Shown here piece by piece: positions 3,942 to 19,618 of a DNA stretch of 64,000 nucleotides. Each line of letters begins with the position of its first letter. Positions within the stretch are counted from its first letter, which is position 1. A program made the position numbers and the translations under genes. Origin of the DNA: Bacillaceae bacterium (GTDB lineage Bacteria; Bacillota; Bacilli; JACDOE01); NCBI GenBank assembly GCA_017656255.1, contig JACDOE010000010.1:36400-100399 (forward strand), given 5' to 3'. The notes beneath the pieces were generated by a model. It saw nothing but the letters and a program-made list of their open reading frames with translations, had not been told where the DNA came from and ran no database searches.

Positions 3942-3965
3942 TAAATTTGTTATATGAATGTTTAT
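3942..3965. repeat. direct repeat flanking the methyltransferase gene (partner at 4841-4861)
   Basis: 'taaatttgttatatgaatgtttat' versus 'taaatttatatgaatgtttat'. A 15-nt exact core 'tatatgaatgtttat' lies at 3951-3965 and 4847-4861. Confidence 0.6.
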
Positions 3966-4024
3966 TCTCTTTCTTTAAAAAAATCTATAATAAAAACTAT
4001 TATAAGTTTCATATACTCACTAAC

Positions 4025-4801
4025 TTATTTCACTGCCTTCCATATTGTCCATCTATCTTTTTCGACTATATTTTTTTCTATATTAATTGACTTATCTATA
4101 TATTTTATTAGTTTATCCAATTCTTTATCATCTATTTCATATAAAATGCTTCTTCCTGTTCTATTCCTTAAATCTTTAAATAATTCCTCTTTCGTTTCAT
4201 GTACCTTTCTTATTTCCCATAACTTAACTTCTATAACATCTCTGAATCCAACATATTTAAGGGATTCAATAACAGTTTGTCCATTATGACGTCGATCAAT
4301 TTCTTTTTCAATTAGTCTGGGGAAAAGTTTAAAAAAATATCCTCTAATATGAGTTTCGTCCCCTTCTAATAAGCAATCTTCAGGGGTACGGTCTTGAACA
4401 ATATAATATCCATCTTTCTTTAATAATCTATATGCTTCTTTGAAACAAGCATATAAGTCATTAATATGATGTATTAATGCTCTTTCAAGTAATAAATCAA
4501 AACAGTCGCTTTCTAAATCAGTATCAAAAGCATTTCCATACTTAAAAGATATGTTTTTATATTCCTTACAGTTTTCTTCAGCTTCTTTAAGTATAGCTTT
4601 TGAAAAATCAACACCAGTAACGGAAGGTACACCCATATCCGAAAGTGCTTTACAATATATTCCACCACCACAACCGACATCTAAAGCTTTAGAAACATTT
4701 TCGATTGGTACAAGTTTTTTAATTGCTTCTATCCATGATTTGTCTGCCTTTCGTGTTGAATAAGTCTTGCTGTTTTTCTTATTATGAAAATCTATACCCA
4801 T
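4025..4801 (-). CDS. class I SAM-dependent methyltransferase
   Basis: Motif I is 'ALDVGCGGGIYCKAL'. I chose the ATG at 4801 (MGIDFHNKK...) because it sits 7 nt after GAGGAG; the longer ORF reaches 4816. Confidence 0.8.
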   Translation of the reverse strand: MGIDFHNKKNSKTYSTRKADKSWIEAIKKLVPIENVSKALDVGCGGGIYCKALSDMGVPSVTGVDFSKAILKEAEENCKEYKNISFKYGNAFDTDLESDCFDLLLERALIHHINDLYACFKEAYRLLKKDGYYIVQDRTPEDCLLEGDETHIRGYFFKLFPRLIEKEIDRRHNGQTVIESLKYVGFRDVIEVKLWEIRKVHETKEELFKDLRNRTGRSILYEIDDKELDKLIKYIDKSINIEKNIVEKDRWTIWKAVK

Positions 4802-4840
4802 GGTAAATCTCCTCATTCTATTGATTAAACTTTTATAGGG

Positions 4841-4861
4841 TAAATTTATATGAATGTTTAT
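4841..4861. repeat. direct repeat flanking the methyltransferase gene (partner at 3942-3965)
   Basis: See the feature at 3942-3965. Confidence 0.6.
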
Positions 4862-4926
4862 AATTTACCTCTTTAATTTTAAAACATACCACTAATGTTG
4901 CATAAATAGTTACAGAAAATCCAGAT

Positions 4927-5690
4927 TTATATGTTTGCGTGGAAATGGGCTAAAAAGCCAAATGCTAAAGTAAAATGTCCATTTAGAGTTGCAACGATAT
5001 AGATTTTCTTATGGACTACCTCGGATTTCCCATTGAATTTGGCGAACCATTTTTGAAAGGGATTTAATGTTTGTAACCAACGTTTGAAGAAGGGATTGCT
5101 TTGTTCTGTTTCCACGAGTAAACAATTTGTGATTAGGGCGGATTAAAGTCGGTTTTGAACCACCGTTTCCCATTTATACCATAAAAACCCTTTATTCAAA
5201 CATGTTGCTTAAACTATTTGAATAACTTAATTCCCCAACGAAACCAGTAGGTGTTACTAATCTGTTTAGCACTAATATCAAAGCGACTAGTAACGAATAT
5301 CTTTGCCTTGTGAGTCTACCGTTTCCACTAATTGAAATTCATTTTCGGTTCGCTTTACGTAGTTCCGATGACAAAGAGTCTAAGGAAATCGTTTTTATTT
5401 CAGATATAGCAAAGTGCTTGATTGTACAGTTCAACAACGGAATTTTTCTTGAGTCGTGAAGCAAAAGAAAATCCTTTAATAAGAAAAGCGATCAAAAAAC
5501 GTACATAGATTCTTTTTAGTCAATCAAAATCTCATGTTGCTAAAATTTGTTCACACGTTAAGAGTGATGATGACTTTCTCCGTAGATGGTACCGAAATCG
5601 ATAAATGCCAAACTTAAGTATAGTTTTACCCCTGCTTTTGTTTTTTGCGAAAGGATTCTCACTGGTAGTTTGTTAAATACATGTAGAATA
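4927..5690 (-). pseudogene. degenerate IS4-like DDE transposase remnant(s)
   Basis: Minus-strand frames are broken by many stops. They read '...ISNTYWFRWGIKLFK*FKQHV*IKGFYG...' (about 5165-5250) and 'NPFFKRWLQTLNPFQKWFAKFNGKS' (4990-5100). Both resemble the C-terminal Y-2-R-3-E-6-K / 'RWxIExxFKxLKQ' region of IS4-type transposases. Confidence 0.35.
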
Positions 5691-5932
5691 ATACTTGAAT
5701 TAATGATTTATAGATCAACTCATTTACCAAATAACTTGTCACATAGCGTTTTCCTTTCCTTTACTTTAGATTTGGATAGGGATCACCTATACTCTCCATT
5801 GTAAAGGATTTATAACACTTGCAGATCGAACATTCATTGTATTTTTAATACTCTGATTTAATTATTACAATACTAATACATAACAATCTGAATTATAAAT
5901 ATTATTCAAAGATTAACTTTGAAAGGTGCGTT

Positions 5933-7144
5933 TTATTTCATATCCAACTTACTGTTATACTTAATCGAGTCGGGAAGTGGAATATGCTCTACCTTAGGAA
6001 GAGATAAAAGACTTAGTAAACATAAACCCATAAATCCCAAGAATACATAGTGCGTATTCATAATCCCAGCCAAATACCCAGAAAGCAAGGCTGAAGAAAT
6101 CTTAGCAAATGATACCACAATTGACCGGAAACTAATCACGCGGCCCATTAACTCTTTAGGAGTGTTAATCTGAACCAGTGTCTGCATAGAAATCACATGA
6201 AATAGAATGAAGAATCCGAACCCGAACAAAGCAAAAACTGTAAACCAAACGTACCCATCAATTCCCATAAATAAGGAAAATACTACTAAACCAACTAAAG
6301 TTACCACACTAACTTTCTCTTTATATTTATATAATGCTTTTTCCACAACAAATCCACCCAATGATCCACCTAGTGTGAATGAAATGGTTATTATAGAAAA
6401 TAAAACGCTGGAACCTTTCATATCTCGTGCAACCATTGGAGCGAGTAGAGTATTTGTCATTTGATACCCTGCACTACTAATAGTAGCGAGGAAAAACAAG
6501 TATAACATTCCTCTTTTTTCATTTACAAACTTCCAACCAACTTTAATACCTTCAATAACGTCCATACTTTTACTTTGAATATTACGTCTATCTATTCGAC
6601 GAAGCAGTATAAAGAAAATTGATGATACCATAAAGGTTAATGCATTGATTGCAAAACAAATTTCTACTGATAAAATAGACATTACGATTCCTGCTATACC
6701 AGTACCAATCAATGCCATGACAAAATTAATTGAAGATGACTTAGAGATAACATAAACCATTTCTTCATCGCTGAATGATTCTCTAATTAACGTTTGAGAA
6801 GATGGCTTAAATACCAGATGACAAACTGCTAAAACAACTTGAAGAAGATAAAACATAACAATTGATATAGTATCTATAAAAATTAACAGAACAACAATAG
6901 ATACAGCTAACCCACGAATTAACTGAACAGCAACTGTTAACACTTTGGAGTCCTGATGGTCTGTAATTATTCCTACCCATGGTGCGAAAAATAAGGGAGG
7001 TAGGTAATTAATGGCGATTAATATTCCAAGGGACAGGGGACTTCCTGTAAGTTTTAAAACCAACCACATCAACGCTACCGATTGGAAACCATCTCCTAAA
7101 TTATTAATTGCTGAACCTAACAAATAAAAGAACTTATTTCGCAT
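5933..7144 (-). CDS. MFS transporter
   Basis: 403-aa ORF with about 12 hydrophobic helices and an MFS-like N-terminus ('LGDGFQSVALMWLVLKLTGSPLSLG'). GGAAGGG RBS upstream. Confidence 0.8.
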   Translation of the reverse strand: MRNKFFYLLGSAINNLGDGFQSVALMWLVLKLTGSPLSLGILIAINYLPPLFFAPWVGIITDHQDSKVLTVAVQLIRGLAVSIVVLLIFIDTISIVMFYLLQVVLAVCHLVFKPSSQTLIRESFSDEEMVYVISKSSSINFVMALIGTGIAGIVMSILSVEICFAINALTFMVSSIFFILLRRIDRRNIQSKSMDVIEGIKVGWKFVNEKRGMLYLFFLATISSAGYQMTNTLLAPMVARDMKGSSVLFSIITISFTLGGSLGGFVVEKALYKYKEKVSVVTLVGLVVFSLFMGIDGYVWFTVFALFGFGFFILFHVISMQTLVQINTPKELMGRVISFRSIVVSFAKISSALLSGYLAGIMNTHYVFLGFMGLCLLSLLSLPKVEHIPLPDSIKYNSKLDMK

Positions 7145-7308
7145 AGTTGTGCCCTTCCATTTTTTATTTTAACTGGAAAATCATTTTATTTAGAAACATT
7201 AAATCGAGGAGGAATCGAAAAATAACATTCAAAAACACACTCTCTAAAATATATCCTTAAACTGTTGCTATTCGAATTCCTCCTCTGACATTCATGAAGT
7301 GAAGTGTT

Positions 7309-8083
7309 TTATTGTCTTCGTAATGAAAGGTTAGATAACTTAACGAAGCGTTTATATTTAAGAATAGTATCTAATACATCGCAAAGAATTAACATATTAG
7401 ACTCTTCCCCTGGAAAGTCACCCCAACTATCGTCATCGTTGCGAATGCTCATTAACCATTTGAAACCTTTTTCAATAGTGTTATGCCAAGAATAATCATC
7501 AAGGAGTTCACTCGCTAATATTAATGCTCGAATACTGTCACAAGTGTGGTCAACATTCATGTTATCGTAATGTCCTTCAGGATGTTGAGTCTTAACCAAG
7601 TATTGAACTGCTTTCTTAGAAGCTTTAACACCTTTCTTATCATATCCAAGAGTCTTTTGTAATAAGTGTGCTGTAACACAAACTGGTGTTTCATACTTTT
7701 CTTTATATTCCCATTCACCATCCTTACCCTGTCTTTCTATAATAAACTCCATAGCTTTGTTGTAAGGTTCTTCTACCATGTTTCTAATACGTTGTGGTAT
7801 ATCTGGAAGCATTCTAGCGAACATCAATGTACCGGCGCTTACACTAACAGCATCATAGAGTCCCCACTTATCATCCCACAAAGTCCCATCCTCTTTTTGT
7901 TGAGTGATTAACCAGGATAACCCATTATAAATTGCATTATCAAATCGCTCATTCCTCTGAGACAATGCATTATTAGCACGTAGAAGCATTTGTGTAGAAA
8001 ACGCAGTTTTTCTTACATGGCTTTTAATTTCCTTAGTGGTATTTCCCCAGCCACCATCCTCATGTGGGATAGAGCCCCATCTG
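7309..8083 (-). pseudogene. 5'-truncated prenyltransferase / squalene-hopene-cyclase-repeat (alpha-alpha toroid) protein
   Basis: Repeated 'DG.W' motifs are present ('HEDGGWGN', 'QKEDGTLWDDKWG', 'RQGKDGEWEY', 'TQHPEGHYDN', 'RNDDDSWGDF'). The frame stays open up to 8083 with no start codon until 7989, so the N-terminus appears to be missing at the segment boundary. Confidence 0.55.
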
Positions 8084-8149
8084 AATTAACAGGGTCTGGG
8101 GTTTACACAGAAAAATTGACAGACCCTCCCCTTATTTTGACGTGTGCTT

Positions 8150-8525
8150 TTATTTGCGTTCCGGATGTTTGCGGTAAAATTCATGCAGCAGCTTCATCAA
8201 GGCCCTTTTTTCAATCCGGGAGACATAGGAACGTGAAATCCCCAGCTCTCTGGCAATTTCCCGCTGCGTCTTTTCTTCTCCCGATTCAAGCCCGAACCGG
8301 CCGATGATCACCTCCTTTTCTCTTTTATCCAGCACGTGAATGTTTTTGTAGATCTTGCTTCGTTCGATTTTGAATTCCACTTTGTCGATGACTTCGTTGG
8401 CGTCTGTTCCGAGGATATCCATCAGGCTGATTTCGTTACCTTCTTTGTCGGTGCCGATTGGATCGTGGAGGGAAACGTCTTTGCGGGTTTTTTTGAGGGA
8501 GCGCAGGTGCATGAGGATTTCATTT
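8150..8525. repeat. 376-bp direct repeat (partner at 3545-3920)
   Basis: Offset is exactly 4605 bp. I found one mismatch. Confidence 0.9.
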
Positions 8526-8887
8526 TCAATACATCTTGCTGCGTATGTGGCCAATTTGGTCCCTTTGTTTACCTTGTAACTTTCGATGGCCTTGATCAGC
8601 CCGATGGTGCCGATGGAGATCAAGTCTTCGCTGTCTTCGCCGGTGTTTTCAAATTTCTTGACGATATGCGCCACCAGGCGAAGGTTATGCTCGATCAGCA
8701 TATTCCGTGCCTCAACATCTCCCTGTTCCATCAAGCGTAAGTATTTCTCCTCGTCTTCTTCCGACAGTGGCTGGGGAAAGGCATTGTTCTTGACGTAGGA
8801 GACGAACAGAATCAGTTCTTTGTACAGAAGCGCCAGTAACCCGAGCAGTCCAGACACCCGATCCCACCTCCAGGAATAGTGCTTCAT
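8150..8887 (-). CDS. sigK: RNA polymerase sporulation sigma factor SigK (pro-sigma-K), intact copy
   Basis: 245 aa with a pro-sequence plus '[20 protein letters not shown]', '[37 protein letters not shown]' and '[24 protein letters not shown]'. Co-linear with B. subtilis SigK over its whole length. Confidence 0.93.
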
Positions 8888-8925
8888 TTATGCCTATTCC
8901 CTTCTGGGCTTGTTTGTGTCTGTAC
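8656..8925. repeat. 270-bp direct repeat (partner at 15292-15561)
   Basis: Offset is exactly 6636 bp. I found four mismatches: three are synonymous codon changes and one lies in the 5' UTR. The repeat covers codons 1-77 plus 38 bp upstream of the ATG. Confidence 0.9.
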
Positions 8926-9010
8926 TAAAAAAACTGTAATCAGTTTTATTTGCTTTTTTAAATTCTTTAAGTAAGTATCATATAACACCATAACAGACAG
9001 TAAAAGACAA

Positions 9011-9034
9011 GATCCCGGTTTGAATACCGAGATC
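9011..9034 (-). terminator. terminator after the last gene of the segment-B operon
   Basis: The minus strand reads 'GATCTCGGTattcaaACCGGGATCttgtctttt', starting 28 nt downstream of the stop at 9062. Confidence 0.55.
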
Positions 9035-9061
9035 ATCACAGTAACTTAATACATCTCTAAT

Positions 9062-9562
9062 TTAATTAACCTTCTGATCATAAAACGCAATGGCCTCATC
9101 TATTAATTTTTCAAGATGTGGTTTAAGTTCAATTGCTTTTGATTTAGCTTTGTGTGTGTCATAGCCTAAATCAATTAAAAATGCATATGTACTAACCATT
9201 TCCAAAAACTGAGAACTTTCCTTGACCATAGAATTCAAAAGATCAGTATTAATTTTTAAAGAGTATCCTCCATCAGCTTCTAAAGTTTCTTTAAATGCTT
9301 TCCCCTTCTTAGTAATAGAGTACACATAAGCTTCATCGTTTTTTGATTCAGTTAGAAATCCTTGTTGTACTAAAGTATTTATCTCTTCTTGAAGTTCTGC
9401 AGAATATGGGCCATAAAAGTGGTATTCATACTTAAATGGTAAATCTAATCCGGCTGATTCAAGCAAATGCACCATCTTTTGTACCTTTTTTCGACCGTGT
9501 ACCTTTTTAATTTCATCAAACAGACTCAATAAACTGTAGGCTCCTTCGAACAATTCAATCAC
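9062..9562 (-). CDS. YwgA / SocA(Panacea, DUF4065)-like protein
   Basis: 166 aa. 'KVQKMVHLLESAG...YHFYGPYSAELQEEINTLVQQGFL' resembles the YwgA-type partner of YwfO-type HD proteins. It overlaps the upstream HD gene by 4 nt. Confidence 0.55.
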   Translation of the reverse strand: MIELFEGAYSLLSLFDEIKKVHGRKKVQKMVHLLESAGLDLPFKYEYHFYGPYSAELQEEINTLVQQGFLTESKNDEAYVYSITKKGKAFKETLEADGGYSLKINTDLLNSMVKESSQFLEMVSTYAFLIDLGYDTHKAKSKAIELKPHLEKLIDEAIAFYDQKVN

Positions 9563-10869
9563 CCTCCAAAAATTTCATTTTTATAATCTTCGGGCATAAA
9601 GTATCTATCTATAGAGATTTTTTTATTTCTAATTCCATTAATTATATCAGAGATCACTGATAATTCTGTACCATTTCCGTTATTATCAAATAAAATTATT
9701 TGCTCTGAAGCTTCACGTTCGCCTTCTTTTTCATCCGTTTTGGGCGTATGAAAAATATAGGGATCTTTGTATGAACTACTTTTAGCTTCGTCCATTAGAA
9801 AGTAGTACTTAATTGGAATGCCTTTTTTGTTTGAATATTCGAATACCTCCTGCCAAAACTCCATAGGACTTTTGTCTGGAATGGAAACTGACTTAAAAAA
9901 CTTTCTTCTTAATAGTCGAGTACAAAGATCGCTCAATATCGAATCTTGGTGTCTACTCCATATCGAAATAAAATACCAAATCGTATTATCTGTTAAATTA
10001 ATATAATTATGTAGTGTTTCTTTAAGGTTGCCTTTTTCTGATAAAATCCGAATCAAATCTTCAGGAAATTCAATCTCCTGTTTTTCTTGAAAAATCTCAT
10101 AAGCTCTATTAAATATTTTATCTACTAGTAGTTCAGCGCTCCGAGTTGTTTTGTGAAAATACACATTCATATACATATAGTACCTTGCCATAACAAAATC
10201 TTCGGCTATACTAATACCTTTTTCAAGATCTAACCCTACCTCAATTTGACCATTATATTCACCGATTCTCAATACATTTATCATCCATTCAAGATCGAAT
10301 GAACCGTAGCCTGCACCAGTCATTTTAGAGTCTCTTAATAAATAATCAATTCTATCTGTATCTAACTGACTTGATAACAATTTCACAAGAGCTTTGGATC
10401 TATGAGTTCGTTGAATAACATCAGCAACTTCATCTGGGTCCACATTGTACTTTTTGAGAACGCTATTGATTTCTGTATCCCCACGTATTATTTCTATTGT
10501 CCACTTTTCATGTCTAACGCCAGTTGTTTTTTCTAAAGCATGGGAAAAAGGGCCATGCCCAATATCATGTAGGAGTGCTGCAGTTAATGCTAACATTCTA
10601 TTATCAGCTAGCTCTTGAGAATATTGTTTGTATTGTTCATCCTTTAAGCTACATATCTTATTAATAAATCTTTTAGTTAAATGTGTCACACCAATAGAAT
10701 GAGCAAACCGAGTATGTTCGGCTCCTGGATATGTAAATGACGATAATCCAAGTTGTTTTATATGGCGTAGTCTTTGAAATTCTTGGGTATCTATTAATTC
10801 CAAAAGCAAAGCATCTGATTCTTTATCAAAATGAATAATATTATGTACGGGATCACGAATAGTTTTCAC
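9559..10869 (-). CDS. HD-domain dNTP triphosphohydrolase-like protein (SAMHD1 / EF1143 / YwfO family)
   Basis: 436 aa with 'IRDPVHNIIHF', 'FQRLRHIKQLGLSSFTYPGAEHTRFAHSIGV', 'LLHDIGHGPFSH' and 'DTDRIDYLLRDS'. These are hallmark motifs of the family. Confidence 0.8.
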   Translation of the reverse strand: MKTIRDPVHNIIHFDKESDALLLELIDTQEFQRLRHIKQLGLSSFTYPGAEHTRFAHSIGVTHLTKRFINKICSLKDEQYKQYSQELADNRMLALTAALLHDIGHGPFSHALEKTTGVRHEKWTIEIIRGDTEINSVLKKYNVDPDEVADVIQRTHRSKALVKLLSSQLDTDRIDYLLRDSKMTGAGYGSFDLEWMINVLRIGEYNGQIEVGLDLEKGISIAEDFVMARYYMYMNVYFHKTTRSAELLVDKIFNRAYEIFQEKQEIEFPEDLIRILSEKGNLKETLHNYINLTDNTIWYFISIWSRHQDSILSDLCTRLLRRKFFKSVSIPDKSPMEFWQEVFEYSNKKGIPIKYYFLMDEAKSSSYKDPYIFHTPKTDEKEGEREASEQIILFDNNGNGTELSVISDIINGIRNKKISIDRYFMPEDYKNEIFGG

Positions 10870-10917
10870 ATTATCACCCCATTATAAAACTCTTTAATTA
10901 TTATCTAACTCGACAAA

Positions 10918-11556
10918 CTAGAATGCATTGTGTTTTCCCATTTGTCTCAGTACTTCTAATCTATCTAAACAACTTGTACATAATAAGCAATGTCGATCCC
11001 CTAAAGCATTACAAGAAAAGGTTTTTTCTATTGGTACTGACATGTTAATTGCCTCATCAATTACAATCTGTCTGTCTAAACCCACAAATGGAGTGATCAA
11101 TTCAAATTCATGAAGTGATTCTGAAAGAGTAGTAGATATGCTCTCTATAAATGACTTACTTGTATCCTTATAAGATCTTGACCCAGTCACACCTATTGCT
11201 ATTTTTCGTATATCGTTTTTATACGCATATGCTCCAGCCAAAGATATTAAAATCATATTTCTGTTCGGAAAAAACTCGGTATTAAACCATTCTTCTGCTG
11301 AATATCCTGATTGAGGACTATCCCCCACAAGTGATCCAGAGCCAAGGTGCTTCATATTAGAAATGTCTAAAAATAAGACTTTATCCGCATACTCATTTCC
11401 TATTATTGATTTAATTGCTCTAATTTCGCCAGACACTGTTACTTGCCCATAGTTAATATGAATAGGGAATATATCGTATTTTCTTTTTCGCAACCAATAA
11501 TAAAGAACAACAGAATCAATGCCCCCTGATAATAATAATACGACTTTTTTTCTCAT
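10918..11556 (-). CDS. QueC-like PP-loop ATPase (7-cyano-7-deazaguanine synthase family, divergent)
   Basis: 212 aa with the 'LLLSGGIDS' PP-loop, 'INYGQ', 'FFPNRNMILISLAG' and a C-terminal Cys cluster 'SCNALGDRHCLLCTSCLDR'. Co-linear with QueC. Its start overlaps the upstream stop (ATGA). Confidence 0.75.
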   Translation of the reverse strand: MRKKVVLLLSGGIDSVVLYYWLRKRKYDIFPIHINYGQVTVSGEIRAIKSIIGNEYADKVLFLDISNMKHLGSGSLVGDSPQSGYSAEEWFNTEFFPNRNMILISLAGAYAYKNDIRKIAIGVTGSRSYKDTSKSFIESISTTLSESLHEFELITPFVGLDRQIVIDEAINMSVPIEKTFSCNALGDRHCLLCTSCLDRLEVLRQMGKHNAF

Positions 11557-12818
11557 AATATATACAACTTCTCTATTAATTCTTCAATAGATTCAACTAT
11601 AACATTACAACCATAAACTAGCATATTATTTAATTCAAACTGTGAGGTTTTTAAAGCAATTATAGGGATACCTCTTTCATAAGCAAACCCAACTTCAAAA
11701 CATGTACCCGGATCATTATGATCTAACAATGCTACCACAACATCAGATTGTCTTATCAAGTCAAGATCTTTATCAAAAATATTTTTGCGTTCATCCATTG
11801 GTGTGTCTTTCTTTATAATTCCATTTTCTCGTAGAGGTGATAAAACTTTAAATCCACAATTTTCTATTCTATTCGTTATTAATTTAACCCAATCCTCTTC
11901 CTGTTTACTAAAAAATGGACCTGCCAAGTAAACGCTTTTGTCTGAATTACCAGATACAACAATTTCTCTTCTGTCCATATCTTCTTCTACCGCTACTCTA
12001 TTTATTATATTTTCAATTGTAAAATTCTCAATGAAGTTAGCAGCAACACAACTTGCTAACCTCGTACTATACTCAATATCCCTCGTCCTGAGAAATGTAG
12101 CAGCTAATGCACCACCAAAAACATCACCAGAGCCTAAAGTGCATTTAACATTACTTTTATACGCCGGTATATGTATAGTCTTTCCTTCGTTTACTAGAAT
12201 ACAACCTTTATATCCTCTTTTTACGATTATGTACTTAGGCCCCATATGAATTAACTTTTCAATAGCATTCTCTAAAGTATTTGCTTGAGTTAATAATAAA
12301 ACCTCTTCCTCATTTACTAAAAGTACAGATACATATTCTAAAATTTTTCTAGCATCATGAATTGATTTGCTATTTGGTTTTGGGTCAAGAAAAACAGGAA
12401 TATTTTTTTCACATGCTTGCTTACATAAATCTTCCGGAAGCGAGTGATCCACTGGAAATACTAAGATACCCTCACATTCATCACTTAGCTGTGGATTATA
12501 TTCAATACCGATTTTAACATCTATCAAAGGAGTACTTTTTTTAACTTCATAAGCTTTATAACCTTTTACTAAATATTTTGGCAGACAATAATTTTCCATA
12601 TATTTAGCACTCGAAAAACTTACACCCATTAAGTTCCATATTTTTATACTATATGAATCGATTTCGGGCCCGTATACTGTCATAAACTCAACATTGATGC
12701 CTTGTTTTGCTGCAGATATTGATGCATATAAACCGGCTCCCCCAAATCTATCGATAATCTTTGTATCATAATCTAATAATAAGTCAATACCTATCTCTCC
12801 GTATACAGCAATATTCAT
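11553..12818 (-). CDS. fusion protein: PfkB-family sugar/nucleoside kinase + nucleoside 2-deoxyribosyltransferase-like domain
   Basis: The N-terminal part has 'GGAGLYASISAAKQG' and 'TLGSGDVFGGALAA' (PfkB signatures). The C-terminal part has 'VYLAGPFFS' and 'DPGTCFEVGFAYERGIPIIAL' (NDT/DNPH1-type motifs). I chose the start at 12818 (MNIAVYG...) because it sits 5 nt after GTGAGGTGA. Confidence 0.75.
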   Translation of the reverse strand: MNIAVYGEIGIDLLLDYDTKIIDRFGGAGLYASISAAKQGINVEFMTVYGPEIDSYSIKIWNLMGVSFSSAKYMENYCLPKYLVKGYKAYEVKKSTPLIDVKIGIEYNPQLSDECEGILVFPVDHSLPEDLCKQACEKNIPVFLDPKPNSKSIHDARKILEYVSVLLVNEEEVLLLTQANTLENAIEKLIHMGPKYIIVKRGYKGCILVNEGKTIHIPAYKSNVKCTLGSGDVFGGALAATFLRTRDIEYSTRLASCVAANFIENFTIENIINRVAVEEDMDRREIVVSGNSDKSVYLAGPFFSKQEEDWVKLITNRIENCGFKVLSPLRENGIIKKDTPMDERKNIFDKDLDLIRQSDVVVALLDHNDPGTCFEVGFAYERGIPIIALKTSQFELNNMLVYGCNVIVESIEELIEKLYIL

Positions 12819-12823
12819 CGGTA

Positions 12824-13534
12824 TCACCTCACGAATTGAAAGTATCCGTTTCTCCCTAATATCCATAATAAATAGTCCATCTTACCTAAAGGCACTCCAA
12901 TCTTCAAGCAAATAATTCGTAATGCTTCTTCATATTGTAAGTAAACCTTTTCTGTTATGTTTTTAGGAATATTATATCCTAAGTAACCAAGAAATCTTAG
13001 TATATGGATATCCAGTACTGCACAATCATTATTAAATCCTGTATTCCTTAATAGCCAACTAGCTGATTTCATGCCAATACCTGGACATTCACATAGCCAT
13101 GTTCTAGCATCAAATGAATTAAGTTCATTAAGTTTATCAAATAATCTCCAGTGACAGTTCTCCCAAAGCCAATATCCAGCCTTGGATATAACCTTAGGCT
13201 TCGTTTCCACAAATCTATATTTTCTGAACTGGCCGTTACAAGTAATGGGATAAAACTGCTTTTTTGATAACTCTCTCTTTATTACATTTTCAATTATATA
13301 TAAGTTAGATATAGAGGAATAATATTTTGCTTCGATTAACCCTTTATTCTTTAATACATGTAAACCTGATTTGTTTAACTCATAACTGATTCCAAATCCT
13401 CCAAGAACTACGAAAAAAAATTCATCTATAACTTGTTCATTAGATTTTGAAACAAACGAAAACTCTCTTTCAATTGCAATACCATAAGTTTCCCAAAGTT
13501 CTTTTAACACATTGAATGCTCTAGTATTTTCCAT
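12824..13534 (-). CDS. Ogg2/AGOG-like HhH-GPD DNA glycosylase (N-glycosylase/DNA lyase type)
   Basis: 236 aa. 'CPGIGMKSASWLLRNTGFNNDCAVLDIHILRFL' shows a helix-hairpin-helix with the Lys and downstream Asp arrangement of bifunctional Ogg2-type enzymes. Confidence 0.65.
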   Translation of the reverse strand: MENTRAFNVLKELWETYGIAIEREFSFVSKSNEQVIDEFFFVVLGGFGISYELNKSGLHVLKNKGLIEAKYYSSISNLYIIENVIKRELSKKQFYPITCNGQFRKYRFVETKPKVISKAGYWLWENCHWRLFDKLNELNSFDARTWLCECPGIGMKSASWLLRNTGFNNDCAVLDIHILRFLGYLGYNIPKNITEKVYLQYEEALRIICLKIGVPLGKMDYLLWILGRNGYFQFVR

Positions 13535-13540
13535 ATCACT

Positions 13541-13891
13541 TTACGCCTCTACCTCTACTGTAACCTTCGGGTCATGTTGATTCCCTTCTTTTTTTATTAC
13601 AACCCCCTTGTATTCCCACCCTTCTTCAATACATTTTAAGAGCCAACTGTATTTTGGAGGAACGACCCCTATACTAAAATTATCTTTTTCTTTTTTTACT
13701 TCCATGACCGGCAATGTATCATCATTTCTTAAGATAATAGACACTTCATCATTCACAGAAACATTTCTCCACACTGCTTTTTGATTCTCATTAACAATTA
13801 ATAAAATTGTAACTTTTTCACCGCATCTATTTACTGTTTTTCCAGTTCCTCCTCCAAAACCACCAAATGATGAAAAGCCACCACTTCCCAT
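13541..13891 (-). CDS. small protein with Gly/Phe/Ser-rich N-terminus and beta-rich body (possibly HIRAN-like); first gene of the operon
   Basis: 116 aa beginning 'MGSGGFSSFGGFGGGTGK'. Strong AAGGAGGA RBS. Its stop lies 6 nt before the next start. No family was recognised with confidence. Confidence 0.55.
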   Translation of the reverse strand: MGSGGFSSFGGFGGGTGKTVNRCGEKVTILLIVNENQKAVWRNVSVNDEVSIILRNDDTLPVMEVKKEKDNFSIGVVPPKYSWLLKCIEEGWEYKGVVIKKEGNQHDPKVTVEVEA

Positions 13892-14024
13892 ATAAATCCT
13901 CCTTACTAGTTATTTTTTTTTTTGCAATCTTTATAATACTCCAAAACTATTTATATTTAAATTAAATGAAATCTCATTTTGATCACTTCTTTTGTAAATT
14001 GTCTAATGTGCTTAGAATATGTTA

Positions 14025-14860
14025 TTATTTCTCTAGACCAAATTCTCTTTTTAATTTATTAAAGTCATATTCTTTTATTTCGATTGGGATACTAAGGTTC
14101 TTAAGTTTTGACATCAAATCGCTTTTATTAACAACAGGTTTGTCCTCGTAAACAATTGCGAATATCAATTTAAAATTATTTATTGAAGCACTGTCTAAAT
14201 TTTTAGCTGTCTGATATAACGATTCAATAACATTACGAGTTAACTTACCTCGTTTATTATATTTTATCTCAAATCCATAAGTTGAATTATCAGTTTTACT
14301 AATACCATCAATTTCAATTAACTTATCAGAAGATTTAAATGCCATGTGTCTCTGAATAGGAATTTTAAATTCTTGTTCAAGTTTCCTAAACACCAAATCT
14401 TCAGCTAAAAAGTATTGCATTTTGGGATCAACAGTCACTTTGGAAGGCATGTCTAACGTACCCGCTTTATCCTCTTCAATATTATTATCACTAGAAGATT
14501 CTTCAAGCTCTGCTTCTGCTTTCTTTCTTTGTGAATCACTAGTTAATTTTAAGAAATTCCCTTCATCCTTAAAATCACTTGGCGCATATAATTTGGTATG
14601 ATAAAAATCACAAGTCTATAAAATGTAAATAAAACAAGTAAAGGGAAAATTACTATGAAACACACAAGGAACCATTTTTGAGAAACATTTAATTCCGAAC
14701 TAAATTGAAGTACTAATGCTGCTATTCCATAAATTAGTGATATAAATAATGCAATGATACCTAAGGGGTTCTTTGTAAAACCTGATGCACTTCTCGTGAA
14801 TTCTATTATTATCGCTCACCTTCCTTGTAAAAATTTTAAAATGATGCCAACGTTACTCAT
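14025..14860 (-). pseudogene. disrupted membrane-anchored PD-(D/E)xK-like protein
   Basis: The ATG at 14860 begins 'MSNVGIILKFLQGR'. An in-frame TGA follows at 14816-14818. Two hydrophobic helices come next, then a frame change at a T-run near 14600-14610. After that the frame runs into the 141-aa ORF 14025-14450, which has 'IEIDGIS...YGFEIKY'. Confidence 0.5.
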
Positions 14861-15283
14861 TCTTAATACCAATCCAAATCATATCCGTGGACAAAAATGG
14901 CTGGAAAATATAAAACATGTCTGAGTATCAAAAAATTAATCTTTTAATATAACATTCTTCTCTTTTTTCTCATTAACTCCTCCTAGCTTTTGTGCACACC
15001 AATATATTAAAAAACAATCTTCAAAACTATACTTACTCCTTTTAGATCAAAGATCAAAAAATCCCTAACAAAAAAATTAGTGTTTATTCTCAATTGTATT
15101 TCGGTAAAAAAACAGATAATCCCTTTTAGGACAAATAAAAAATAATTAGTAAGGATATCACTCTATACTATATACTTATCTGAATTAATAGGTTTAATTG
15201 GTTTTATAATTATCTTCTTTTAGCTATTTGAAACCCCCCCTGACCCAGCACCACACCAGCATTCTTCCGACATCGCTTCGTGT

Positions 15284-15523
15284 TCACAACCTCTTGACGA
15301 TATGCGCCACCAGGCGAAGGTTATGTTCGATCAGCATATTTCGCGCCTCAACATCTCCCTGTTCCATCAAGCGTAAGTATTTCTCCTCGTCTTCTTCCGA
15401 CAGTGGCTGGGGAAAGGCATTGTTCTTGACGTAGGAGACGAACAGAATCAGTTCTTTGTACAGAAGCGCCAGTAACCCGAGCAGTCCAGACACCCGATCC
15501 CACCTCCAGGAATAGTGCTTCAT
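15284..15523 (-). pseudogene. sigK: sigK 5' fragment (codons 1-77, then 'RL' and a stop)
   Basis: The 79-aa ORF matches intact SigK through '...[10 protein letters not shown]'. Homology ends at 15292. Confidence 0.9.
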
Positions 15524-15561
15524 TTATGCCTATTCCCTTTTGGGCTTGTTTGTGTCTGTAC
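15292..15561. repeat. 270-bp direct repeat (partner at 8656-8925)
   Basis: See the feature at 8656-8925. Confidence 0.9.
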
Positions 15562-15669
15562 CGGAGATTTGTTTTTGCTCTTTTGTTAAAAACTGTTTAA
15601 GCATTTTTAACACTAGCGTTCTCAAATAAATTTAATGTTTCTGTCCTTCACTTCTTTTTTCTACAAGTA

Positions 15670-15710
15670 AACAAACATCCCGCAATACCTTAATAGTAAT
15701 GCGGGATATT
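15670..15710 (-). terminator. terminator of the Hen1-Pnkp operon
   Basis: 'ATCCCGCA-15 nt loop-TGCGGGAT', followed on the minus strand by 'gtttgttt'. Confidence 0.5.
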
Positions 15711-15742
15711 ATGAGAACCTTTTAGACATACCCTTCTTTACC

Positions 15743-18346
15743 TTATAACCTCGGGTCAATTTCTTTCTCTTTACTTACTTCAAATAGCATGTTAGCAACC
15801 ACCTGTTTATATTTATGATCTGACTCATTTATTTTATCTAAATGAAAGGCCAACATCTCTTTCCCAAGTTTGAATTCATTGATAGAGGTTTTTAGTTTCT
15901 TTGAAATATTTTTTTGCTTTAAAAGCTTGGCATATTTGTGTGGAAAGCGATAATCATATCCATAAACAATGGTTAAATAATCTGGATTGCGAACTTTCAT
16001 ATAAGGGGCAGTATCATCTGCCAATTTTTCAGGTTTAATCACGACACCTTCCATTTTTCTTTCTGTTGTCAAAGTCTTAAAAAAGGTTAAAGCTTTTTCA
16101 TAATAATCCTGTTCGTTTAAATCGATCAACATAAATTCATCATCAGATACAAACTTAAAAATTTCCGATGTTGATTCTGCAGGGATGATCTCTTCTCCAT
16201 TTTCCTTGACCATTTTTAAAATATTAAATGGTTTATAGTTAATCTCATCATCCTTTGCATAGAGCTCGATTTGTTCATGATATTTTTGATGGGCTTCCAC
16301 ATGTTTTTCTATTGGTTCATATGACTTTAACATAGTTTGCAACGCCTTATAAGTCTGGTAAGTGGCACCGCCAAACTTTTTAATCAAATCTTTCTTAGAC
16401 ATTGTTTGCTGATCGACTTCATAGTCACTTGATTTATATTGCTCAACAAGTTTTTGAAAGTGGGCATCAAAGCCTTGCTCCTTTAAAAAATCCAACTCTG
16501 TTTGTAAAGCTCTGTCTATAGTCCTAAATTGCTTTTCAATCAATTCCTCTCCCAAAATAGACCAGGGCAGTAATTCACCATCAAACACGATTGTTTTTAT
16601 TTTATTCTCTTTCATGTAATCCGAAAATTTATTTAACAGATTATCATATACCGGAGACAAATCCACTTTCTTAATTTTAAATCCATTTCGACTCACTGCA
16701 TAACATTGATCTAGTTCCCTTGCTAAGTAAATGTTACATCTTGACCCCATGTACTTCGGTTGCAAAACCACTTTATGGACGCCTTTTCTCTTAAAATACA
16801 ACAACCCCTGTTTTAAAGATTCCAATTCATTGCTATCCAAATCTTTGTCAGCCGGCGACATGGTACCAGAAATATAATTAATCTTATTTTTCAAGACATA
16901 ATTAAGGCGCTTTTGGTCCTGTTCATGTAAATCCTCGATGTTAACATGTTTATCTCTTTGTTTAAATAAAGTAGGTAAAGGTTCGTTCCAGTATTTACTA
17001 GTGCTTGTAATTCGCTGCTGTTTAAAAAACGGTCTCCAGGAGTCAATCACAACAGAAGAAAGAACATTTCCATTGGCAGCTCCCGTATCAATGTTAATCT
17101 TATTTTTAATTTGGACTATTTCTTTTACAGCAACATGTCCAAAAATATGATACGGATGATTTCCAACACTCTCTGACTCCAGAAAGTGCAATTGCTCCTC
17201 GTAGGGTTTTTCTCGATCAAGAACAAAGCTTCTTTGCTTTTTCAGAGACGTTTTATCTAACTTCCCTATATATTTGTTTTGACACGGAGCATGTGTCACA
17301 TAAAAGGAAGGCTTTTGTAATCCAATATACCTGTAGAATTCTTTCGAAGATTCAACGAGTCGGAAAAATTTGTGTTTTAAATCCTCATCCTTTTCAAAGA
17401 TTTCTATAGAGTCAAAGTAGTTGTCTAGTAAACTTGAATCTACTGAATTCTTATCAATTTCACCTTTCAAGTATTTGTAAACAAAATTCTCATGATTTCC
17501 TTTTACAAGCACAAAATGATCCATATTTTGTTCAATAAATTCTACCGTCTCTTTGGTAGCATTTCCTTTGTCAATCCAGTCTCCGTTAAGAATAATTTTA
17601 TATTCATCCGTTTTTTCAGTGGATAAAATACGATTATTTTCAATATTAAACCCATAGCTGATAAGCAGCTTTTTTAAATCAGCCACTTTTTCATGAACAT
17701 CTCCAACAATTATATATTTGTGTTCCTGCGGCAAAATATGACTGAGATAATGATCTAAATCCTCTATCATAATTTTATAATTTGCATTCGGTTCATTGGT
17801 ATCAGGGTTATAGAAATCCCGCTCCCTAATTTTGTGTATTCGACGAAATTTTGACTTTGAAATTTGTTTCAGAACCTCTCTTTTGAGACGAGTGACATGA
17901 TTTGAAATTAATCGTCTTGAACCACCTGAAGCATAGAAATCTTCTCTATTTTTAAAATCAAAAAGTATAGCTTCCAGGTTATATTGCTTTTCTTTAGCAA
18001 TTTCCATGATTTGCTCACGGAATTCTTCTGAAAGGCCAATTGTATCAACAATGACGAACTCGGCGTTAATTGGAAATGACGTAACGGCTTTTAGTTTCTC
18101 AAATAAAATATGAAAGGCTTGTTCGCTGCTTTCCATCATAATTCTGTCATGTTTGTCATATTCATGTCCCAAAATATCCTGCCTGATTTCATCAGAGGAA
18201 ATATATTGAACATTGGTTTTAAAGCCCCGATCCTTATCCTGAATAGAAAGTTGAGGCAACAATATTTCTTTAGCAAATGTTGATTTACCGGAATTAGTAG
18301 CACCAATTAACATAAATATGGTATGCATATTTGTTTTTAATTCCAT
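15743..18346 (-). CDS. pnkp: bacterial polynucleotide kinase-phosphatase (Pnkp): kinase + metallophosphoesterase + ligase/adenylyltransferase domains
   Basis: 867 aa. Contains an N-terminal P-loop 'IGATNSGKSTFA', central 'IIVGDVHE...GDWIDKG...GNHE' phosphoesterase motifs, and a C-terminal 'QPKYMGSRCNIY' ligase-like lysine motif. Confidence 0.85.
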   Translation of the reverse strand: MELKTNMHTIFMLIGATNSGKSTFAKEILLPQLSIQDKDRGFKTNVQYISSDEIRQDILGHEYDKHDRIMMESSEQAFHILFEKLKAVTSFPINAEFVIVDTIGLSEEFREQIMEIAKEKQYNLEAILFDFKNREDFYASGGSRRLISNHVTRLKREVLKQISKSKFRRIHKIRERDFYNPDTNEPNANYKIMIEDLDHYLSHILPQEHKYIIVGDVHEKVADLKKLLISYGFNIENNRILSTEKTDEYKIILNGDWIDKGNATKETVEFIEQNMDHFVLVKGNHENFVYKYLKGEIDKNSVDSSLLDNYFDSIEIFEKDEDLKHKFFRLVESSKEFYRYIGLQKPSFYVTHAPCQNKYIGKLDKTSLKKQRSFVLDREKPYEEQLHFLESESVGNHPYHIFGHVAVKEIVQIKNKINIDTGAANGNVLSSVVIDSWRPFFKQQRITSTSKYWNEPLPTLFKQRDKHVNIEDLHEQDQKRLNYVLKNKINYISGTMSPADKDLDSNELESLKQGLLYFKRKGVHKVVLQPKYMGSRCNIYLARELDQCYAVSRNGFKIKKVDLSPVYDNLLNKFSDYMKENKIKTIVFDGELLPWSILGEELIEKQFRTIDRALQTELDFLKEQGFDAHFQKLVEQYKSSDYEVDQQTMSKKDLIKKFGGATYQTYKALQTMLKSYEPIEKHVEAHQKYHEQIELYAKDDEINYKPFNILKMVKENGEEIIPAESTSEIFKFVSDDEFMLIDLNEQDYYEKALTFFKTLTTERKMEGVVIKPEKLADDTAPYMKVRNPDYLTIVYGYDYRFPHKYAKLLKQKNISKKLKTSINEFKLGKEMLAFHLDKINESDHKYKQVVANMLFEVSKEKEIDPRL

Positions 18347-19618
18347 TTACTTTTCACCTCTTGCTTTAACCAAAACTCCCTGAGTGGTATAAACCCCGTC
18401 TACACAATCGCCAATACTTAAATGATGAATCTCAAAATCTCGTTCATCAAAAATCTCACTTATCCATTGTTTAAATTCATTTGTCCCCATTTCCCATTTA
18501 TGATCTTCATGCCGATATTCATCCAGGGAATAATACTTATTAAAATCATGATTTGGAGTCGTTATAATAATGGATTCAAAATGAATGTCATCAAGAATTG
18601 TTAAAATTAGTTTTTTAGCCTCATCCTTCTCCATGTGTTCAATGACTTCTGTAAGGATGACATCAACTAATTCCCCATTGTAATCTTCAATAAAATCCTC
18701 AATGGATCCATAAGTTAATATATTTTCAATACCCCTTTTTTTAATTCTTGCATCCAGCGAACGAATGATATCTTCATCAATGTCAATGGCATAATAGTAT
18801 TTGTCACCTATACTTTCGGAGAAAAGAAAGGCATAATAACCTTCCCCACATCCAACATCAACAATTGGTTTGTTGAAGGGTAATAACTTTTTTATCGCTT
18901 CTCTTCTTTGGTGAGCTGTATGTCCGTAAGAAAAGTTTATGTCATACCTTTGTGTTTCTTCCAGGCTTTCTTTAAATTTTGAAAATAATTTCCTGCTGGT
19001 AAGTATGTTTCGTGCAAACAGATACCTTATAAAAAACGGAGCATCCAGGACTTTAATTTGATTAACATACTTTTCAATCAAACTATCTGTAACATCAAGG
19101 TATTCGTTACCTATTAAAGATAAAAATAAAAACAATAGATTAGCTGTATTCAATAAATCATAAATACTTTTGTTCGTTTTGATTTTAATTGAATAGCTCT
19201 TGTGAGATTGATGAATCATTTCGATAGAGAAATCCTCAAAATGTTTGCTAAAAAAATCTATATATCTTGGTAGTGTGATATGAACCATATTCACAAATAA
19301 TTCATTTTCATATCCTTCAAGATCATTATCATACCGGTTTTTGATTGTGGAATTAAAGAATTCTGTCATTGCGTTTAATGGAAAAAGAGGTGTATTATAT
19401 CTTGAAACATTTAGATATTCAAAGCTTTCTTCTTTATGTTGCTTGTAAGATATCTCGTTGTCAGCGTCCTTAAAATATATATTGTAGGTTTGATCATCAG
19501 AATACCAGCCAAACGCAATTCCCTGTCTGACTGTACGCAACATCATGCCTGAAGCTGGATTTTTGCGTATTAAAAAAGAAAAGTGCGGATTCGTTGATTT
19601 TAACTGAACAATAGCCAT
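18347..19618 (-). CDS. hen1: Hen1 3'-terminal RNA ribose 2'-O-methyltransferase
   Basis: 423 aa. The N-terminal 'FSFLIRKNPASGMMLRTVRQGIAFGWY' is Hen1-type, and the C-terminal SAM motif is 'IVDVGCGEGYY'. The stop codon abuts the pnkp start codon. Confidence 0.8.
   Translation of the reverse strand: MAIVQLKSTNPHFSFLIRKNPASGMMLRTVRQGIAFGWYSDDQTYNIYFKDADNEISYKQHKEESFEYLNVSRYNTPLFPLNAMTEFFNSTIKNRYDNDLEGYENELFVNMVHITLPRYIDFFSKHFEDFSIEMIHQSHKSYSIKIKTNKSIYDLLNTANLLFLFLSLIGNEYLDVTDSLIEKYVNQIKVLDAPFFIRYLFARNILTSRKLFSKFKESLEETQRYDINFSYGHTAHQRREAIKKLLPFNKPIVDVGCGEGYYAFLFSESIGDKYYYAIDIDEDIIRSLDARIKKRGIENILTYGSIEDFIEDYNGELVDVILTEVIEHMEKDEAKKLILTILDDIHFESIIITTPNHDFNKYYSLDEYRHEDHKWEMGTNEFKQWISEIFDERDFEIHHLSIGDCVDGVYTTQGVLVKARGEK

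Follow-up and report, generated by a model that had tools for sequence, protein, structure and literature searches.

The QueC-like gene and its operon

We analyzed a 64,000-nt stretch of DNA, referred to in its entirety as the window, from a contig of the metagenome-assembled genome (MAG) of a Bacillaceae bacterium (accession # JACDOE010000010.1, positions 36,400 to 100,399 of the forward strand; assembly GCA_017656255.1). The subject of the analysis is a gene for a QueC-family PP-loop ATPase on the minus strand of the window, together with the genes that accompany it (Table 1). The initial annotation, made from the sequence alone, had called this gene an orphan. Instead, it is the fourth gene of a packed operon that is kept in every complete related locus. 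Up to the QueC-like gene, the boundaries between genes overlap or are at most 6 nt wide; the start of the QueC-like gene overlaps the stop of the gene in front of it, a fusion of a PfkB kinase and a nucleoside deoxyribosyltransferase (NDT), by 4 nt. The Ogg-like gene that had been placed two genes upstream is indeed there. The decisive partner that had been missed is the first gene, whose 116-aa product has the N-terminus MGSGGFSSFGGFGGG.

Downstream, the gene for an HD-domain protein starts 48 nt past the stop of the QueC-like gene, with no terminator-like site between the two, and the start of the gene for a 166-aa protein overlaps the HD stop by 4 nt. The hairpin that follows is the sole minus-strand terminator-like site within positions 8800-15800 and is the probable 3' end of the transcription unit. 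A promoter scan was uninformative in this AT-rich DNA (33 sites versus 32 expected). The QueC-like gene lies within a low-GC stretch (0.31-0.35, versus about 0.5 in the flanks).

Table 1. Features of the operon in the window (positions are those of the window).
Feature	Size	Positions	Strand	Match or remark
Small protein	116 aa	13541..13891	-	No Pfam match; proposed acceptor of a 7-deazaguanine tag on Gly2
Ogg2-type HhH-GPD glycosylase-like protein	236 aa	12824..13534	-	PF22175, E 4.4e-21
PfkB (ribokinase-like) kinase + NDT fusion	437 aa	11553..12866	-	PF00294, E 6.9e-24; PF05014, E 2.4e-21
QueC-family PP-loop ATPase	212 aa	10918..11556	-	Gene under study; ATG start
HD-domain phosphohydrolase (HD + HD_assoc_2)	436 aa	9559..10869	-	PF01966, E 1.8e-11; PF19276, E 2.1e-7
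Protein similar to DarG C-terminal region and DUF4364	166 aa	9062..9562	-	PADLOC DarG, E 7.8e-11; PDC-M19A, E 1.2e-7
Terminator-like hairpin	9-bp stem, 5 G-C pairs	9011..9034	-	T-rich tail; consensus match only

The QueC-like protein is divergent from QueC and resembles Cap9

The Pfam QueC profile (PF06508) matches the protein end to end (residues 4-206 against profile positions 1-209 of 210; E 1.7e-37). The ORF exists as first described and is co-linear with QueC over its whole length. The PP-loop SGGIDS (residues 10-15), the NYGQ motif (residues 35-38), and the C-terminal cysteines C182, C190, C193, and C196, a predicted four-Cys zinc site, are invariant across 27 relatives. The presence of these motifs had been noted correctly, but the spacing of the cysteines had not: it is C-x7-C-x2-C-x2-C, whereas canonical QueC has Cx8. 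About 70 relatives are on record. Those with a named source are mostly from Firmicutes and share 45-77% identity, and most of the relatives bearing a name have been named QueC automatically.

The protein had also been described as clearly divergent, and the equivalog models agree. The score against TIGR00364, the NCBIfam QueC equivalog, is 112.9 bits, under the trusted cut-off of 150.3, and the score against NF008317 is 52 bits versus a cut-off of 378. The canonical catalytic signature comprises YxQxHxxE, VPxRN, and YPDC (Libby et al. 2026, PMC13329287). In the window protein, the first of these reads YGQVTVSGE, without the His and with one extra residue; the second is kept as FPNRN; and the third reads YKDT, in which the Tyr and Asp are retained and the Cys is replaced by Thr. 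Canonical QueC shares with the family its fold, PP-loop, Zn(Cys)4 site, R-N, Y-x-D, and overall length; the family differs in the missing His, in the Thr of YKDT, in the sub-equivalog score, and in a G-x-L-x-G loop (GSGSLVG in the window protein, GSGELVG in Cap9) where QueC has (A/S)xxALTR. This loop, like the YGQ(x)5E motif without the His, is common to the family, Cap9, and the Cluster-4-type proteins discussed below.

The best match among PDB sequences was Cap9 (9nto_B, E 1.7e-11), just ahead of the Bacillus subtilis QueC (3bl5). An AF2 model of the protein (pLDDT 88.5) likewise had Cap9 9nto_B as its best fold match (TM 0.84, normalized by target length), with QueC next. The Cap9 residues that contact NDG and ATP are S18, D22, S23, L83, R86, Y115, and D117 (Wassarman et al. 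2025; PDB 9nto); they align with S10, D14, S15, L76, R99, Y129, and D131 of the window protein. All seven are invariant or nearly invariant in the family, L76, R99, and D131 being invariant and Y129 nearly so. Because these contacts are conserved, the alignment points to a 7-deazaguanine carboxylate as the likely substrate. The two enzymes are of the same QueC-fold PP-loop type with the same nucleobase-contact residues. They differ in that Cap9 is a minimal scaffold of about 185 aa, whereas the window protein keeps a loop of about 20 residues between GSL and RN that Cap9 has lost, and in that the family has YxDT in place of YxDC.

We placed the protein in a neighbor-joining tree with QueC and Cap9 sequences (100 bootstraps). 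This family and Cap9 form separate clades, each with 100% bootstrap support, and the family does not fall within housekeeping QueC. The mean distances from the family to Cap9 and to QueC are about equal (0.80 and 0.81). The deep splits have bootstrap values of 13-37%, and the tree does not decide between Cap9 and QueC as the sister of the family. Given the separate clade and the about equal distances, the window protein belongs neither to the Cap9 clade nor to the housekeeping QueC enzymes. The suggestion that it is a repurposed QueC paralogue is borne out by this placement and by the TIGR00364 score.

Two further QueC-family enzymes were compared. QatC is about 400 aa long, has N- and C-terminal extensions and a remodeled active site (18-19% identity to QueC and Cap9), and is encoded with a KAP ATPase and a TatD nuclease in QatABCD; neither partner is near the window gene, and the window proteins had no match to PADLOC QatC. 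QatABCD is similar in that it pairs a QueC-family enzyme with a partner, QatB, that has a disordered N-terminal tail, in a defense system with a nuclease output. DpdC is set apart by gene context only: it is encoded with DpdA/DpdB and the Dpd restriction genes, whereas the window has no TGT/DpdA-like gene.

A Pfam scan of 37 ORFs of the window found no QueD, QueE, QueF, or FolE domain and neither a CD-NTase nor a TGT domain, which agrees with the initial annotation, and no preQ1 riboswitch reached the Rfam gathering score in the window. The lack of preQ0-pathway partners is not the oddity it was taken for; the type IV CBASS locus that we examined is likewise without such genes.

The first gene encodes a small protein with an acceptor-type tail

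Residues 1-20 of the 116-aa protein form a Gly/Ser/aromatic tail, MGSGGFSSFGGFGGGTGK, that is predicted to be disordered, and residues 21-116 form a predicted HIRAN-like domain. The ATG is the first possible start in the ORF and is preceded, 7 nt upstream, by an AAGGAGG Shine-Dalgarno sequence. The AF2 model has pLDDT values under 50 at residues 7-19 and over 90 in the domain. The HIRAN fold was assigned to residues 21-116 through a fold match of this predicted model; no Pfam family, the HIRAN family included, matched the protein at E <= 0.01. A word-indexed homology search with the protein returned only the protein itself. An exhaustive phmmer search of 1.84 billion representatives returned 27 real clusters, after two matches (P0074 and P0101) had been discarded as eukaryotic tandem-repeat artefacts; with so few clusters, the family is rare.

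The tail is a feature of the family. A start of the form M[GS][GS][GSP], followed by a Gly/Ser-rich stretch with Phe or Tyr, was found in 40 of the 45 small proteins collected, against a background of 3 in 351 ORFs of at least 150 aa in the same DNA. Examples are MGSGGFSSFGGF in the window, MSGSGGGSFGGQFG and MSGSGGGSFGGQFGQ in Citrobacter, MGGGSGGYERPS in Halorubrum, and MGGSGGGYGG in another member. In each of the 23 complete loci, a homologue of the small protein holds the same place in the operon. The version on Halorubrum pHLAC01 (L117, 3379-4467) is 362 aa long; besides its MGGGSGG tail, it has two HIRAN-like domains in tandem and an acidic linker of low complexity (about 200 residues).

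In type IV CBASS, a tail of this kind is the acceptor of the tag. There, Cap9 conjugates 7-carboxy-7-deazaguanine (CDG) to the CD-NTase at its Gly2, and all type IV CBASS CD-NTases begin with M(G/S)G(G/S)GG, the motif for conjugation of N-terminal 7-amido-7-deazaguanine (NDG); CdnD, the enzyme of Rhizobiales, starts with MGGSGGSFGSGFDPR (Wassarman et al. 2025). The N-terminus of the window protein matches this motif. QatB needs an N-terminal glycine (MGTS) and a disordered tail.

The operon is conserved across phyla

Loci were fetched from genomes, metagenomes, and assemblies, and all of their ORFs were compared by BLAST with the window proteins. Divergent loci came from a tblastn search of the PfkB-NDT protein against plasmids, from annotated regions, and from two assembly look-ups with divergent QueC-like proteins. 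The order small protein, Ogg-like protein, PfkB-NDT, QueC-like protein is found in all 16 Firmicute-type loci with complete upstream sequence, the Ogg-like gene being missing from one of them (Thermohydrogenium, L011/12). All 7 divergent loci keep the order small protein, PfkB-NDT, QueC-like protein. Together, the 23 complete loci range over Firmicutes, Proteobacteria, high-GC metagenome contigs, and a haloarchaeon. The cassettes of these loci contain no CD-NTase and no TGT, and no queD, queE, or queF was found in the annotated neighborhoods of related loci.

The divergent loci vary in what surrounds the core. On a Citrobacter plasmid and in 10 of 5426 complete Escherichia coli genomes, where the cassette is always chromosomal, a 110-aa protein is followed by PfkB-NDT, the QueC-like protein, and a nitroreductase-like protein; Ogg-like and Dam-like genes lie on the other strand, and a gene annotated as an anti-phage dGTPase is 2 kb away. 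A Moraxella plasmid has the small protein, PfkB-NDT, the QueC-like protein, and an overlapping HD/HD_assoc gene annotated as an anti-phage dGTPase. An Agrobacterium plasmid has an Ogg-like gene, an unannotated 131-aa ORF, PfkB-NDT, the QueC-like gene, and an Mrr_cat nuclease gene. In the archaeon Halorubrum, the plasmid-borne 362-aa tail protein with its two small-protein domains precedes PfkB-NDT and the QueC-like protein, and two high-GC metagenome contigs (L015 and L019) have the same core.

On a B. cereus megaplasmid (accession # NZ_CP042875.1; L114, 4320-6296), a 118-aa small protein is followed by a single 658-aa PfkB-NDT-QueC polypeptide. By the Rosetta-stone argument, this triple fusion suggests that the PfkB, NDT, and QueC activities work together. 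A NUDIX gene precedes the small protein and the fusion in this locus. Separately, 44 Bacillus plasmid records matched the PfkB-NDT query.

In Bacillus sp. V59.32b (L001, 12691-14742), a gene for a 683-aa DUF6884-TGT fusion lies 2 kb downstream of the cassette and heads a further gene run; it is the sole TGT-family gene seen near any of the loci and could belong to a Dpd-like or other 7-deazaguanine system. In soil metagenome contigs (L029-L031; e.g., L029, 5146-8992), a QueC-like gene (29% identity) precedes ORFs of 357, 325, and 207 aa, and the opposite strand carries an Ogg-like gene. The arrangement resembles a type IV CBASS operon, and its Ogg-like protein is 30% identical to that of the window over 76 aa (E 2.8e-5).

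PfkB-NDT, the Ogg-like protein, and the downstream genes

The PfkB-NDT gene is immediately upstream of the QueC-like gene, or fused to it, in every locus. Its PDB matches are ribokinases and the NDTs 7m5h and 6evs. The NxxE, G[ST]GD, and YLAGPFF motifs do not vary across 14 orthologues, nor does the Glu of FE(V/I/M)G.

The Ogg-like protein scores 90 bits against NF002305 (cut-off 183), and its best PDB matches are the Ogg2 enzymes 9o00, 3n0u, 3fhf, and 3knt. The catalytic positions, the Lys in GIGMKSAS and the Asp in VLDIH, are present. All but one of the 16 complete Firmicute-type loci have the gene, as do 3 of the 7 divergent ones. Its similarity to Rhizobiales Cap11 is weak (E 0.013 in a tiny database), and we therefore do not claim orthology with Cap11.

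The last gene of the operon is variable and encodes an HD dNTPase-like protein, an Mrr nuclease, a nitroreductase-like protein, or a PTP-like phosphatase, a pattern typical of swappable effectors. Directly after the QueC-like gene, at least 10 of the 19 Firmicute-type loci have an HD gene, of subtype HD_assoc_2 or HD_assoc; in some of these loci there are extra genes, for a guanylate kinase (L002), a PolyA_pol-like nucleotidyltransferase (L003), or SIR2 (L017). In the window, dGTPase models match the HD protein weakly and in its N-terminal part only, and we regard it as a candidate effector or nucleotide-handling partner. The 166-aa gene, whose DUF4364 match is below the cut-off, follows an HD_assoc_2-type HD gene in the window and in L004, L013, and L022 (about 67% identity).

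The HD + HD_assoc_2 gene recurs together with the 166-aa gene in loci of Cohnella and Paenibacillus (67-74% identity). In PADLOC, the 166-aa protein matches DarG (C-terminal part), PDC-M19A, and LmuC. The pair resembles ywfO-ywgA of B. subtilis and could be a separate module that happens to adjoin the cassette.

Relation to Cluster 4 of PF06508

In the PF06508 "Cluster 4" of Libby et al. (2026, Biochem J, PMC13329287), a PfkB-NDT gene is the neighbor in 89% of cases, and purine salvage was suggested as the role; linkage to queD/queE was reported only for the canonical cluster. The window gene, too, adjoins a PF00294-PF05014 fusion. The best BLAST partners of its product outside its own family are Cluster-4-type proteins (61-94 bits; 68 bits versus Cap9 and 57 versus E. 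coli QueC), and on these matches the Firmicute family is best seen as the sister group of Cluster 4. In both groups, the QueC-like gene directly follows the PfkB-NDT fusion and is slightly shorter than QueC, and SGGxDS is combined with a YGQ...E motif that is without the His. Cluster 4, however, is mostly proteobacterial and has H-x-D where QueC has Y-x-D, whereas the window family is from Firmicutes and has CNxLGxRHCxxCxSC and Y-x-D-T. The Cluster 4 signature CH(x)5CxxCxGCxK is carried by P0070 and by the QueC-like proteins of Citrobacter, Moraxella, Agrobacterium, and Halorubrum; it is absent from the window protein, which reads SCNALGDRHCLLCTSCLDR.

The Cluster 4 paper mentions neither a small tail-bearing protein nor Ogg-like or dGTPase partners (PMC13329287). 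In the literature that could be searched, which held few subscription papers, the gene set appears only in Libby et al. 2026 and in a passing remark on a Stenotrophomonas island. Neither source notes the small protein or proposes protein modification, and a prior description elsewhere is possible.

Genomic islands and neighboring genes

In E. coli KMi029 (L118, chromosome 4338595-4358767), the island that carries the cassette is integrase-bounded, is located at yjcB/soxS, and also has a Gabija-like nuclease/UvrD pair and an annotated anti-phage dGTPase gene. Besides the cassette, this strain keeps a normal queC at the usual ybaE-queC-fadM locus. In other genomes, the cassette has as neighbors Wadjet and a TerB/BrxC-D/helicase set; Zorya and YopA; or an SLFN-type helicase, McrB, and Mrr. 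Elsewhere the neighbors are SIR2; pPIWI-RE; PemK, SAVED, and NB-ARC; TIR genes; and integrases and IS elements.

In the window, the cassette lies next to repeated parts of sigK. An intact sigK, the gene for a sporulation sigma factor, is present at 8150-8887 on the minus strand (TIGR02846, 375.6 bits). Its 3' 300 nt are repeated (3542-3841 = 8147-8446, 99%), as are its 5' 270 nt (8656-8925 = 15292-15561, 99%). The repeats bracket two low-GC segments. One of them (3841-8147) contains a methyltransferase, an MFS transporter, and a squalene-cyclase-like fragment; the other (8925-15292) contains the whole cassette, the HD gene, the 166-aa gene, and a 141-aa ORF. This arrangement resembles a pair of Campbell-type insertions at the sigK locus, or skin-like intervening DNA, but no recombinase gene was seen in either sigK-flanked segment. 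The repeats are possibly an assembly artefact of the MAG. The seven genes that run from the 141-aa ORF through the 166-aa gene make up the whole gene content of an independent 6.4-kb Logan contig (L016).

The 141-aa ORF (14025-14450, minus strand) lies directly upstream of the cassette. It was rejected as a part of the system, being absent from all other loci. It has no family match in Pfam, NCBIfam, or PADLOC and was found only in this organism (L016); some of its residues (…EIDGIS…GFEIKY…) may hint at a PD-(D/E)xK nuclease motif.

Beyond the cassette, the same low-GC region holds an RNA-repair pair (15743-19618, minus strand), an 867-aa Pnkp with kinase, phosphatase, and ligase and a 423-aa Hen1 with Hen1_N and methyltransferase; both match PADLOC "mad" weakly. 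A 443-aa protein (19774-21105, minus strand) is encoded at the far end of the low-GC island. Its N-terminal domain is Spo0M/arrestin-like (PF07070, E 7.9e-24), and its C-terminal half is hydrophobic and possibly membrane-spanning. Farther along the window, two c-di-GMP-I riboswitches (39150-39234 and 41328-41411, both on the minus strand) each precede one of two adjacent genes (37297-39033 and 39480-41219; 578 and 579 aa), a lysine riboswitch (36963-37145, minus strand) precedes a gene at 35925-36815, and a GGDEF protein is encoded at 48424-49563.

Discussion

Protein deazaguanylation was described in 2025-2026, and to our knowledge two systems are known, type IV CBASS and QatABCD; we know of no account, for either system, of the fate of the tag after its attachment, notably at its free N9. 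On the comparisons given above, we consider it probable, though with considerable room for doubt, that the operon is a third deazaguanylation-type defense system, with an NDT and a kinase in place of the TGT. The operon is conserved and its first gene bears an acceptor-type Gly-rich tail; a protein-tagging machinery is therefore likelier than queuosine biosynthesis. We propose that the QueC-like gene would encode a Cap9-like protein-modifying ligase rather than a preQ0 synthase. What was computed here is the homology, the fold, the tail motif, the gene fusion, the island context, and the conservation of the operon; the conjugation of NDG to the small protein is what we infer by analogy, and every step past conjugation, as well as the anti-phage role, is speculative.

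The initial annotation had heard in the pairing with an Ogg-like gene an echo of the accessory set of type IV CBASS. The echo is real and extends further than could be seen then: the two have in common a partner with a disordered M(G/S)G(G/S)GG tail, an Ogg-family accessory, the absence of CDG-synthesis genes, and a location in defense islands. They differ in that the operon is without CD-NTase and TGT, that the tail is on a HIRAN-like protein of about 115 aa, and that PfkB-NDT stands where the TGT does. The Ogg-like protein has the position of Cap11 but is of the Ogg2 type with a catalytic Lys.

The proposed system would be a mobile operon of 4 to 6 genes, encoding the small HIRAN-like protein with its M-G-S/G-G tail, the Ogg2-like protein, PfkB-NDT, the QueC-like enzyme, and often an HD dNTPase-like protein with or without its small partner. 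Methionine aminopeptidase would free Gly2 of the small protein. CDG made by the host, whose pathway such systems are thought to draw on, would be adenylated by the QueC-like enzyme, and the alpha-amine of Gly2 would attack in place of ammonia to give NDG, as for Cap9 and CdnD. The tethered base would have a free N9, to which the NDT domain, in the stead of Cap10, would then attach a (deoxy)ribose; this sugar would next be phosphorylated by the fused PfkB kinase. NDTs exchange purine bases on deoxyribose via a glutamyl-sugar intermediate. With this chemistry and with the invariant Glu, NxxE, and GSGD, glycosylation of N9 followed by phosphorylation of the sugar is possible. For the TGT-like Cap10, this role is a hypothesis. 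The Ogg2-like glycosylase might reverse the NDT step, a role suggested for Cap11. The output would lie with the variable last gene (HD dGTPase-like, Mrr-type nuclease, nitroreductase-like, or phosphatase).

Taken to its end, the scheme has the operon build a protein-tethered 7-deaza(deoxy)guanosine nucleotide on the HIRAN-like protein, with the Ogg2-like protein as the eraser. We put this extension forward tentatively and think it rather doubtful in this specific form. The HIRAN-like domain might sense or target DNA 3' ends, and the tethered nucleotide might be delivered to these ends by the domain or be read by the dGTPase-like HD partner as an allosteric ligand. Speculatively, the HD enzyme would deplete dNTPs or handle the tethered nucleotide.

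Several points weigh against a deazaguanylation system. The Ogg-like protein is only remotely Cap11-like and is missing from several loci. Five of the 45 small proteins do not have the tail motif (one is truncated, and another has a possibly mis-called start), and the HIRAN assignment comes solely from a predicted fold. The order of the deep branches among Cap9, the family, and QueC has low bootstrap support, and the features shared with Cap9 could therefore be convergent or ancestral. The enzyme retains nearly the whole canonical QueC catalytic set, so that free ADG or preQ0 is still a possible product. In the 2023 release of PADLOC, the small protein, the Ogg-like protein, and the PfkB-NDT fusion have no match, and the operon is therefore not a system catalogued there. 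A scan of the viral contigs of IMG/VR found only QueC homologues of at most 33% identity and no member of the family, and the one locus checked (L033) is without the cassette genes; the absence of a close relative there is neutral as to a role in defense. Finally, the sole paper found on the related Cluster 4 files it under purine salvage (Libby et al. 2026).

That assignment leads to a different explanation, a small-molecule pathway. Here, the QueC-like enzyme would make free ADG or preQ0, or amidate another carboxylated base; the NDT would load deoxyribose; PfkB, with Gmk in some loci, would phosphorylate; and HD would trim the pool, yielding a salvaged or antiviral 7-deazapurine (deoxy)nucleotide, while the small protein would be merely a regulator or DNA binder. 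The retention of the canonical nucleobase-binding and ATP motifs fits such a pathway, as do the nucleotide-centered enzymes encoded in the loci, among them the guanylate kinase in L002, the NUDIX protein in L114, and the HD dNTPase-like proteins in many. It leaves unexplained, however, why the one universal non-enzymatic partner, present in all 23 loci, has a CBASS-type tail, and it accounts neither for the loss of the His that the family has in common with Cap9 nor for the defense-like rarity, island or plasmid location, and variable last gene. We consider this pathway unlikely.

Still less likely, and in our estimate improbable, is a Dpd-like system of DNA modification and restriction. The Ogg2-like protein would remove guanine from DNA, and the NDT would put in its place a 7-deazaguanine supplied by the QueC-like enzyme; the HIRAN-like protein would target DNA, and the product of the last gene, an Mrr-type nuclease or dGTPase, would act on unmodified DNA. 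HIRAN domains bind DNA ends, and 7-deazaguanines in DNA are an established theme of defense and counter-defense. A glycosylase and a transglycosylase co-occur in the operon, the Mrr_cat nuclease gene follows the QueC-like gene in Agrobacterium, and the Dam-like methylase gene is beside the Ogg-like gene in Citrobacter and E. coli. But the NDT would have to act on DNA; NDTs act on nucleosides, and we know of none that acts on DNA. The tail motif and the PfkB kinase would have no role, the Ogg-like gene is absent from several loci, and there is no DpdA/TGT, save for the unrelated-looking DUF6884-TGT gene 2 kb from one cassette.

A displaced housekeeping queC whose neighbors assembled by chance in a genomic island, as suggested by annotation pipelines that call every member "7-cyano-7-deazaguanine synthase", is rejected as having almost no probability, given the sub-equivalog score, the separate clade, the recurrence of the same neighbors across phyla, the gene fusion in one locus, the low-GC cargo segment, and the E. 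coli carrier that holds a queC as well. The family is accessory and mobile and, in the loci examined, never linked to queD/queE. A housekeeping role is excluded directly only for the proteobacterial branch; for the MAG, we infer it.

If the operon is a deazaguanylation system, it keeps the writer of the tag and the acceptor tail and swaps the TGT for well-understood chemistry, a deoxyribosyltransferase and a sugar/nucleoside kinase. Its tail would be borne by a domain of a type known to bind DNA 3' ends, and a dGTPase-like gene is often added. This makes the N9 question directly testable, through mass shifts on a 12-kDa protein. The carriers include rare E. coli strains that are easy to handle, and KMi029 offers a handy experimental entry. 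A tethered nucleotide, if true, would be the "next step at N9" for type IV CBASS and a new class of protein-nucleotide conjugate in immunity. With the deazaguanylation reading, a branch of PF06508 that is annotated as "7-cyano-7-deazaguanine synthase" would become an immune module of Firmicutes, Proteobacteria, and haloarchaea.

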